Part shown: in pieces, positions 42,118-44,790 of the stretch
Position numbering within the stretch: the stretch's first letter is position 1
How the letters are laid out: each line of letters opens with the position of its first letter
Assembly (NCBI RefSeq): GCF_045037415.1
Contig: NZ_CP173438.1
Length of the DNA stretch: 64,000 bases
Reading direction: 5' to 3' (one strand)
From: Escherichia coli
GTDB taxonomy: Bacteria > Pseudomonadota > Gammaproteobacteria > Enterobacterales > Enterobacteriaceae
The notes under the pieces: model-generated
The model's input: only the letters and a program-made list of their open reading frames with translations
Database searches by the model: none
What the model was told of the DNA's origin: nothing
Translations under genes and position numbers: made by a program

Positions 42118-44790
42118 ATGACAGATGTAACGATTAAAACGCTGGCCGCAGAGCGACAGACCTCCGTGGAACGCCTGGTACAGCAATTTGCTGATGCAGG
42201 TATCCGGAAGTCTGCTGACGACTCTGTGTCTGCACAAGAGAAACAGACTTTGATTGACCACCTGAATCAGAAAAATTCAGGCCCGGACAAATTGACGCTG
42301 CAACGTAAAACACGCAGCACCCTTAACATTCCTGGTACCGGTGGAAAAAGCAAATCGGTACAAATCGAAGTCCGCAAGAAACGCACCTTTGTGAAACGCG
42401 ATCCGCAAGAGGCTGAGCGCCTTGCAGCGGAAGAGCAAGCGCAGCGTGAAGCGGAAGAGCAAGCCCGTCGTGAGGCAGAAGAATCGGCTAAACGCGAGGC
42501 GCAACAAAAAGCTGAACGTGAGGCCGCAGAACAAGCTAAGCGTGAAGCTGCTGAACAAGCGAAACGTGAAGCTGCGGAAAAAGACAAAGTGAGCAATCAA
42601 CAAGACGATATGACTAAAAACGCCCAGGCTGAAAAAGCCCGCCGTGAGCAGGAAGCTGCAGAGCTCAAGCGTAAAGCCGAAGAAGAAGCGCGTCGTAAAC
42701 TCGAAGAAGAAGCACGTCGCGTTGCTGAAGAAGCACGTCGTATGGCGGAAGAAAACAAATGGACTGATAACGCGGAACCGACTGAAGATTCCAGCGATTA
42801 TCACGTCACTACTTCTCAACATGCTCGCCAGGCAGAAGACGAAAGCGATCGTGAAGTCGAAGGCGGCCGTGGCCGTGGTCGTAACGCGAAAGCAGCGCGT
42901 CCGAAGAAAGGCAACAAACACGCTGAATCAAAAGCTGATCGTGAAGAAGCTCGTGCAGCAGTACGTGGCGGTAAGGGCGGAAAACGTAAAGGTTCTTCGC
43001 TGCAGCAAGGCTTCCAGAAGCCAGCTCAGGCCGTTAACCGTGACGTTGTGATCGGCGAAACCATCACCGTTGGCGAACTGGCGAACAAGATGGCGGTTAA
43101 AGGCTCTCAGGTCATCAAAGCGATGATGAAACTGGGCGCAATGGCAACCATCAACCAGGTTATCGATCAGGAAACCGCACAGCTGGTTGCTGAAGAGATG
43201 GGCCACAAAGTTATCCTGCGTCGTGAAAACGAGCTGGAAGAGGCGGTAATGAGCGACCGTGACACGGGTGCTGCGGCTGAACCGCGCGCGCCGGTTGTGA
43301 CCATCATGGGTCACGTTGACCACGGTAAAACCTCTCTGCTGGACTACATTCGTTCAACGAAAGTGGCCTCTGGCGAAGCGGGCGGCATTACCCAGCACAT
43401 TGGTGCATACCACGTTGAAACTGAAAACGGCATGATCACCTTCCTGGACACCCCGGGGCACGCCGCGTTTACTTCAATGCGTGCACGTGGTGCGCAGGCA
43501 ACGGACATCGTAGTCCTGGTTGTTGCTGCAGACGACGGTGTAATGCCGCAGACCATCGAAGCTATCCAGCACGCGAAAGCGGCGGGTGTTCCGGTGGTGG
43601 TTGCTGTGAACAAAATCGATAAACCAGAAGCCGATCCGGATCGCGTTAAGAACGAACTCTCCCAGTACGGCATCCTGCCAGAAGAGTGGGGCGGCGAAAG
43701 CCAGTTCGTACACGTATCTGCAAAAGCGGGTACCGGTATTGATGAACTGCTGGATGCTATCCTGCTGCAGGCGGAAGTTCTGGAGCTGAAAGCGGTACGT
43801 AAAGGTATGGCGAGCGGTGCGGTTATCGAATCCTTCCTCGATAAAGGTCGTGGTCCGGTTGCTACCGTTCTGGTACGTGAAGGTACTCTGCACAAGGGCG
43901 ATATCGTTCTGTGTGGCTTCGAATACGGTCGTGTTCGTGCAATGCGTAACGAACTGGGTCAGGAAGTGCTGGAAGCGGGTCCGTCCATTCCGGTGGAAAT
44001 CCTCGGCCTGTCCGGCGTACCGGCTGCGGGTGATGAAGTTACCGTTGTACGTGACGAGAAGAAAGCGCGTGAAGTTGCACTTTATCGTCAGGGTAAATTC
44101 CGCGAAGTTAAACTGGCGCGTCAGCAGAAATCTAAACTCGAGAACATGTTCGCCAACATGACCGAAGGCGAAGTTCACGAAGTGAATATCGTCCTGAAGG
44201 CAGACGTACAGGGTTCTGTGGAAGCAATTTCTGACTCCTTGCTGAAACTGTCTACTGACGAAGTTAAAGTGAAGATCATCGGTTCTGGCGTAGGTGGTAT
44301 CACCGAAACCGACGCTACCCTGGCTGCGGCGTCCAACGCCATCCTGGTTGGCTTCAACGTACGTGCTGATGCCTCTGCACGTAAAGTGATTGAAGCGGAA
44401 AGCCTGGATCTGCGTTACTACTCCGTCATCTATAACCTGATCGACGAAGTGAAAGCGGCGATGAGCGGTATGCTGTCTCCGGAACTGAAACAGCAGATTA
44501 TCGGTCTGGCGGAAGTTCGTGACGTGTTCAAATCACCGAAATTTGGTGCTATCGCAGGTTGTATGGTTACCGAAGGTGTGGTTAAACGTCACAACCCGAT
44601 CCGCGTTCTGCGCGACAACGTGGTTATCTACGAAGGCGAGCTGGAGTCCCTGCGACGCTTCAAAGATGACGTTAACGAAGTCCGTAACGGTATGGAATGT
44701 GGTATCGGCGTTAAGAACTACAACGATGTCCGCACTGGCGATGTGATCGAAGTATTCGAAATCATCGAGATCCAACGTACCATCGCTTAA
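42118..44790 (+). CDS. infB: Translation initiation factor IF-2
   Basis: 890 aa ORF with G-domain motifs [14 protein letters not shown] and NKID. In-frame GTG at codon 158 (42589) and ATG at codon 165 (42610) sit where I recall the IF2-beta/gamma internal starts. Confidence 0.95.

Follow-up and report, generated by a model that had tools for sequence, protein, structure and literature searches.

Organization of infB and its two repeat blocks

The Escherichia coli infB gene, which codes for translation initiation factor IF2, lies on the plus strand of the window, i.e., the 64,000-nucleotide stretch of contig NZ_CP173438.1 analysed here, and its 5' part carries a charged repeat tract together with two internal start codons (Table 1). 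The full-length product, IF2-1, comprises 890 residues with a computed mass of 97.3 kDa. It scores 987.4 bits against the NCBIfam IF-2 equivalog TIGR00487 (cutoff 424.4; residues 306–889 covered) and belongs, as an exact match, to the cluster of E. coli IF-2 proteins, where it is identical to entry IF2_ECO27. A Pfam scan places IF2_N at residues 1–50, IF2_assoc at 56–94, a second IF2_N at 314–364 and, beyond 393, the GTPase domain and the C-terminal ones, giving the architecture IF2_N–IF2_assoc–IF2_N–GTP_EFTU–EF-G_D2–IF-2–GTP_EFTU_D2 that characterizes IF-2; within residues 95–313 the same scan finds no Pfam domain.

Table 1. Features of infB and its surroundings, in coordinates of the window
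Feature	Position	Strand	Basis or remark
infB coding sequence (IF2-1/alpha)	42118..44790, stop included	+	open reading frame list, translation, NCBIfam, Pfam, protein cluster
Shine-Dalgarno sequence AGGAAGGA of primary start ATG 42118	42105..42112	+	anti-Shine-Dalgarno duplex -6.5 kcal/mol
Repeat block 1	42403..42583	+	about seven 24-nt units, (A-E-E-Q-A-K/R/Q-R-E)n, residues ~96-156
GCGGAA, weak Shine-Dalgarno-like element 10 nt upstream of GTG158	42574..42579	+	duplex -3.5 kcal/mol
A-rich non-repetitive spacer with both internal starts	42576..42640	+	48% A, 9% T; predicted accessibility
GTG codon 158, start of IF2-2 (beta)	42589..42591	+	733 aa, 79.7 kDa; sequence, literature
ATG codon 165, start of IF2-3 (gamma/beta')	42610..42612	+	726 aa, 78.9 kDa; sequence, literature
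Repeat block 2	42631..42753	+	24/21-nt units EEEARRKL / EEARRVA / EEARRMA, residues ~172-212; repeat search, Tandem Repeats Finder
metY tRNA	39843-39919		
rimP leader	40008-40108		
S15 leader and antisense SraG	S15 leader between truB and rpsO; SraG near rpsO/pnp		

The initial annotation, made from the sequence alone, had described a charged repeat tract in the N-terminal part of infB, and repeat search, Tandem Repeats Finder and lag identity all bear this out. In block 1, the 24-nt period recurs in six in-register copies that are 65–72% identical to the reference copy (repeat search and Tandem Repeats Finder); in the protein, residues 98–157 have a lag-8 amino-acid identity of 0.65, a value reached by none of 5,000 residue shuffles. 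The periodicity of block 2 is mixed, residues 170–215 having a lag-7 identity of 0.41 (2/5,000 shuffles) and a lag-8 identity of 0.37 (12/5,000). Block 1, which makes up the helical portion of domain I of IF2, occurs only in IF2-1, and block 2 is common to all three IF2 isoforms. No exact repeat is longer than the 15-mer AGCGGAAGAGCAAGC, found at 42426 and 42450. Two repeated strings had been offered as examples: the 14-mer GAAGAAGCACGTCG does occur twice (42706 and 42727), whereas the 17-mer GCGAAACGTGAAGCTGC is single-copy, its repeated core being the 11-mer CGTGAAGCTGC at 42541 and 42565. In-frame exact nucleotide runs of at least 8 nt number 11, compared with 17.3 ± 4.2 under synonymous resampling; the nucleotide repeats are thus what the amino-acid repeats impose, or slightly fewer.

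On the minus strand opposite the repeat tract, long open reading frames span 42277–42921 (214 aa) and 42267–42596 (109 aa). Most likely these are not genes, since the purine-rich GAA/GCN/CGT codons of the tract make a stop-poor complement.

Two internal start codons lie between the repeat blocks

GTG158 and ATG165 are both in frame with the ATG at 42118. The sequence confirms the codon numbers given by the initial annotation for the GTG at 42589 and the ATG at 42610, and their assignment as IF2-beta and IF2-gamma starts matches published positions and masses. Their location had been misjudged: they do not sit inside a repeat, because a non-repetitive segment between the two blocks (42584–42630) holds both. 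In the literature, GUG158 and AUG165 are named as the starts of IF2-2 and IF2-3 (PMC13245402), and the masses computed here (97.3, 79.7 and 78.9 kDa) agree with those published for the isoforms, 97.3, 79.7 and 78.8 kDa (PMC3334882). Madison et al. found that the mutations g474c and t494c abolish the short IF2 forms and leave IF2-1 intact (PMC3334882); these mutations map to 42591 and 42611 in the window. Ribo-RET, which profiles initiating ribosomes arrested by retapamulin, gives a peak at the infB internal site (10.1101/520783). Mutagenesis, Ribo-RET and N-terminomics have accordingly established internal initiation in K-12 and B strains of E. coli (PMC3334882, 10.1101/520783, PMC13245402), and the initiation region studied here is nucleotide-identical to those of the other E. 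coli aligned. The internal starts are real, published and already known, and in annotation they should not be mistaken for errors.

Where infB is truncated on contigs, gene callers begin the open reading frame at GTG158, as seen in a cluster of 14 member sequences (protein P0050).

Whole-unit length variants are rare and recurrent

Length variation of the tract was surveyed in 5,426 complete E. coli genomes. The screen used 68 junction 80-mers predicted from enumerated in-frame direct repeats (deletion or duplication), combined with random spacers and searched at E <= 1e-25; with spacers of 65–90 nt, local controls separated wild type (121 bits or less) from carriers (137 bits or more). Junction queries with no spacer or with 40-nt spacers were unsuitable because alignments bridge the junctions, wild type then scoring up to 198 bits. 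Gaps of 3 nt score as wild type, so that the screen covers whole-unit changes and not single-codon slippage of (GAA)n. Two other approaches were rejected: counting carriers by identity bands, for which local megablast shows that deletions are hidden by run-on into the next similar unit and only insertions show up, as gapped alignments of ~93% identity; and 100-nt wild-type tiling queries across the tract, which suffer the same run-on masking.

The tract is nearly invariant, being covered to at least 80% in 5,424 of the 5,425 matching complete genomes, and the canonical 351-nt span is exact in 59/59 evenly spaced genomes. Whole-unit in-frame indel junctions were detected in 62 of the 5,426 genomes, a lower bound, with all matches falling within infB. 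The earlier view that the tract is prone to slippage and length variation therefore holds, including at both of the sites it had pointed at, although the variants are rare. Almost half of the carriers (29/62) belong to one clone (Esc1-29 and CNR20191027, ~5.156 Mb) that lacks 24 nt in block 2, its IF2 being 882 aa long; these near-identical genomes seem to stem from repeated sequencing of a single strain, which inflates the raw carrier count. The frequency is about 0.6% of non-clonal genomes and 1.1% raw, with an upper bound of ~1.7% from the search on which the coverage and span figures rest, and the canonical length is found in ~99% of genomes.

At least 11 alleles are represented, namely -96, -48 (as in STEC2018-553), -24 (three sites), -21, +21, +24 (three sites) and +48 (as in OkiPb01695). 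The nine carriers that were fetched have intact annotated coding sequences of 874, 882, 897, 898 or 906 aa, and in these the segment around the internal starts is invariant. Strain N68, in which 96 nt are missing with the breakpoint at CGTGAAGC, encodes an IF2 of 858 aa, and in strain M15 (locus L007) and one further genome two distinct units of block 1, the first and the AAEQAKRE unit, are each duplicated (+24 nt apiece), for an IF2 of 906 aa. Natural alleles thus range from 858 to 906 aa (-32 to +16 residues), with 3 to 9 units in block 1, and members of 898, 883 and 882 aa are also included in the E. coli IF-2 protein cluster.

All aligned breakpoints lie in in-register microhomologies of 8–15 nt. 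One +24-nt allele is a tandem duplication of 42541–42564 with the 11-mer at its flanks, the -21-nt allele is a deletion between the two 14-mers, and one -24-nt allele is located in block 2. Compared over 57 variable sites, three haplotypes share the same +24 duplication: O157 Al Ain has no single-nucleotide polymorphism (SNP) relative to normal-length O157:H7, N10 is one SNP from the K-12-like normal-length sequence, and DETEC-S565 differs from Al Ain and N10 at 18–21 sites. The allele is therefore recurrent.

Several database records deviate in other ways. With 42300–42850 as query, the Nissle 1917 record NZ_CP007799.1 matches at five separate places, one match falls on a plasmid record and a single genome among the 5,426 lacks any match; we suspect assembly duplication or misassignment. 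Public N-terminal IF2 fragments of 268–310 aa (P0064–P0066, P0070, P0075 and P0076), two of them on ~5.1-Mb chromosomes, leave the frame at residue 196 (in the GAAGAAGAAG run), at 205 or at 211–212 (GAAGAAAACAAA), that is, at ~42703–42756, codons ~196–212. Most likely these frameshifted calls are sequencing or assembly errors in purine runs, since losing the frame downstream of codon 165 would abolish every isoform encoded by an essential gene.

The repeat tract is predicted to form a long charged helix

Residues 96–216 contain 26% Glu, 24% Ala and 24% Arg plus Lys; 53% are charged and 7% hydrophobic. The sole Gly or Pro is Pro96, at the N-terminal end, and 38 i/i+4 pairs of opposite charge are present. 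A single-sequence AlphaFold2 (AF2) model shows one unbroken helix over residues 96–216, with predicted local distance difference test values of 88–96. The tract also has the sequence hallmarks of Glu-Arg/Lys (ER/K) helices, i.e., high Glu, Lys and Arg content, an i/i+4 salt-bridge pattern and no hydrophobic seam. Single alpha-helices (SAHs) of the ER/K type occur in myosin VI, myosin X and caldesmon. We infer that residues ~96–216 probably form an ER/K-type charged single alpha-helix; a search of the literature for descriptions of IF2 as such a helix gave no relevant work. For residues 98–157, a helix has been described by nuclear magnetic resonance (NMR), according to a review (PMC4611024).

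Domain I (residues 1–157), which is specific to IF2-1, binds the C-terminal part of NusA via residues 1–50 and 57–90 (PMC12297416). Block 1 therefore joins this NusA-binding module to the remainder of IF2. As to the length of the tract, Salmonella and close enterobacterial relatives (87–92% identity) share the E. coli unit count, Proteus and a few more distant genera differ in it, and length variants are confined to tips, as in O157 Al Ain compared with all other O157 genomes. Because the variants are rare and young-looking, and the unit count is kept among close relatives despite recurrent slippage, these data suggest stabilising selection on helix length.

A different reading takes the tract as a disordered low-complexity linker whose repeat number is neutral and which perhaps supplies multivalent charge for cold, RNA-driven condensation. 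Several observations favour it and at the same time weigh against a calibrated helix: the whole N-terminus (domains I–III) is elsewhere classed as an intrinsically disordered region (IDR), by disorder predictors and with low AlphaFold3 confidence; it is further reported to be an IDR driving condensation in the cold and required at 15 °C; NMR relaxation, as given in the same review (PMC4611024), finds the tract more mobile than the compact N1 subdomain; and natural isolates are viable with indels of -32 to +16 residues. Moreover, the helix prediction comes from a single sequence only, length selection is argued from rarity and tip distribution only, and the carrier frequency is a lower bound because the screen sees only indels of at least 21 nt at the 68 listed junctions. 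A neutral disordered linker nevertheless accords poorly with the NMR helix over residues 98–157 and the continuous high-confidence AF2 helix, and a strict 8-residue periodicity and a unit count kept in Salmonella and close relatives despite slippage, with variants at the tips only, also speak against it. We consider it unlikely, albeit a contender to be taken seriously.

If the tract is a charged helix under length selection, what the helix does is a further step. One possibility is that the repeat helix works as a tether, or ruler, of calibrated length, linking the N1 module that binds NusA with the body of IF2-1 on the ribosome, a role that we propose only tentatively and hold to be doubtful. 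As a still weaker corollary, unit changes in block 1, directly upstream of GUG158, may shift the ratio of IF2-1 to IF2-2/3. Were the tether to exist, slippage would constantly produce tethers of altered length, shorter or longer, for selection to purge, and the natural alleles with 3 to 9 units would be a ready tool for work on coupling, cold growth and condensates.

Predicted accessibility rather than Shine-Dalgarno strength marks the internal starts

The primary start is preceded by a Shine-Dalgarno (SD) sequence whose duplex with the anti-SD, at -6.5 kcal/mol, ranks third of the 120 NTG codons in infB. The internal starts are less well served. The initial annotation had treated the lack of an SD-like sequence upstream of them, together with absent shorter isoforms in proteomic data, as evidence against initiation there; such a sequence is practically missing at ATG165 (-1.9 kcal/mol, equalled or bettered at 60% of infB positions), and GTG158 has just a weak one (-3.5 kcal/mol, equalled or bettered at 26%). 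Because the isoforms are experimentally established despite these weak duplexes, the presence of an SD sequence is the wrong test for the internal site, and in sequence-based prediction the SD criterion is unsuited to the infB internal starts.

Local folding of the RNAplfold type gives a different picture. In predicted unpaired probability from -15 to +9, no position of infB exceeds 42610, and 42589 reaches the 98th percentile. For the fold of 42540–42680, nothing better than in shuffled sequences was found (z = 0.35), and a scan of 39800–45500 for sigma-70-like promoters found no site and hence gave no hint that the short forms have a promoter of their own within the gene. The surrounding codons are also conserved. 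GCG GAA AAA GAN AAA GTG is kept in 7/7 Enterobacterales DNA loci, except for AGA at the third codon in one of them (L018); GCG GAA is invariant in all seven, synonymous sites included, against a base rate of 20% for a codon to be identical in all seven. An equivalent of GTG158 is present in 7/7 loci and of ATG165 in 4/7, and Val occupies the position equivalent to 158 in 15/15 proteins at >=64% identity.

On the minus strand, two overlapping terminator-like hairpins with T-runs lie at 42625–42652, just downstream of ATG165; their sense-strand counterpart is the GCCCGCCGTGAGCAGG stem bounding the accessible A-rich window.

From the folding predictions, accessibility appears to be the main determinant of internal initiation. 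Together with the conservation, they point to 30S recruitment by an A-rich window free of structure, combined with the weak GGA(A) element. The alternative that each internal start is served by a conventional SD sequence draws support from the GCGGAA element 10 nt 5' of GTG158 and its synonymous invariance in the seven orthologues; set against the -6.5 kcal/mol of the primary start, duplexes that are matched at 26% and 60% of infB positions make it rather improbable. A role for accessibility also has to be held against some reservations: it is a thermodynamic prediction for naked mRNA, which ignores the ribosomes translating IF2-1 through the site; the seven Enterobacterales orthologues are not independent of one another; and GAA and AAA are strongly preferred codons, so that only GCG153 and GTG158 are informative on synonymous conservation.

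An integrated view of the infB N-terminal region

Taken together, these findings are best accounted for by an N-terminal repeat helix, an A-rich spacer with the internal starts and whole-unit slippage, a reading to which we give a probability of about 0.85. Residues ~96–216 would form one long solvent-exposed helix of Ala, Glu, Arg and Lys, built from diverged 8- and 7/8-residue repeats. The part encoded by block 1 would tether the compact N1 subdomain and beta-hairpin, which bind NusA, to the rest of IF2-1. The A-rich, T-poor spacer may serve as an unstructured landing site at which 30S subunits initiate independently at GUG158 and AUG165, with the weak GGA(A) SD element helping at most. The 24/21-nt units keep exact microhomologies of 8–15 nt in register, through which replication slippage recurrently adds or removes whole units in frame; the resulting length alleles, viable but rare and young, would be held in check by stabilising selection on helix length.

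Two further alternatives concern parts of this reading. Repeats are error-prone in assemblies, and frameshifted infB calls in GAA/A runs do exist publicly, so the length variants could in principle be assembly or sequencing artefacts. This is very improbable: the verified variants are exact whole-unit, in-frame changes with breakpoints in microhomologies; one allele recurs in 29 genomes of a single clone that were assembled independently, and two assemblies of strain H32 share another; variants also occur in short-read drafts and in an independent read-set assembly; and 24-nt units of ~70% identity are well within read length. That the short IF2 forms arise by proteolysis of IF2-1, the GTG and ATG being coincidental, can be dismissed, as it is refuted by the published genetics, in which g474c and t494c remove the short forms and leave IF2-1 intact (PMC3334882), and is also at odds with the retapamulin-arrested ribosomes at the internal site (10.1101/520783) and with the GTG kept in all seven orthologues.

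Genomic surroundings

The gene order around infB is the standard one, metY–rimP–nusA–infB–rbfA–truB–rpsO–pnp, and the annotated neighbours in matching genomes agree. Between infB and rbfA, an Rfam match to naRNA4, a nucleoid-associated RNA derived from repetitive extragenic palindromic (REP) elements, lies at 44807–44877 on the plus strand (72 bits). In strain background, the window differs from K-12-like and O157 sequences at 36–38 of 57 variable sites in 2.9 kb.

Comparison with known systems

The nearest known system is the tandem initiation of infB in E. coli K-12, with which the locus shares gene, codon numbers, predicted masses and operon context; all E. coli examined have the same nucleotides around the starts, the only difference being in strain background. 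What is known of the isoform starts, of the helical segment with its repeats and of the functions of domain I is already published, this is an ordinary known part of E. coli infB, and the value of the present work as a discovery is small. Its additions are modest, namely a census of whole-unit alleles with their recurrence, and predicted accessibility, rather than SD strength, as what marks the starts.

In its protein, the tract resembles ER/K single alpha-helices, being ~53% charged and rich in i/i+4 Glu-Arg/Lys pairs, with few hydrophobic residues and no interior Gly or Pro, and its uninterrupted predicted helix of 121 residues is, likewise, a spacer between functional modules. It differs from them in being unusually rich in Ala and Gln, in its strict 8-residue repeat and in appreciable NMR mobility (PMC4611024).

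In its DNA, the tract resembles the coding variable-number tandem repeats (VNTRs) of bacteria, in that whole units slip at in-register microhomologies and the same allele arises in different lineages. Unlike these, the infB units are only 65–72% identical, non-clonal variation is ~0.6%, the gene is an essential housekeeping gene and the canonical count is conserved among close enterobacterial relatives. A phase-variable contingency locus is ruled out, the units being of 24/21 nt and diverged, the verified indels in frame and the carriers 62 of 5,426. The rare recurrent length alleles are, in turn, a small natural resource for studying the IF2-1 tether in NusA coupling, cold adaptation and DNA-repair roles.

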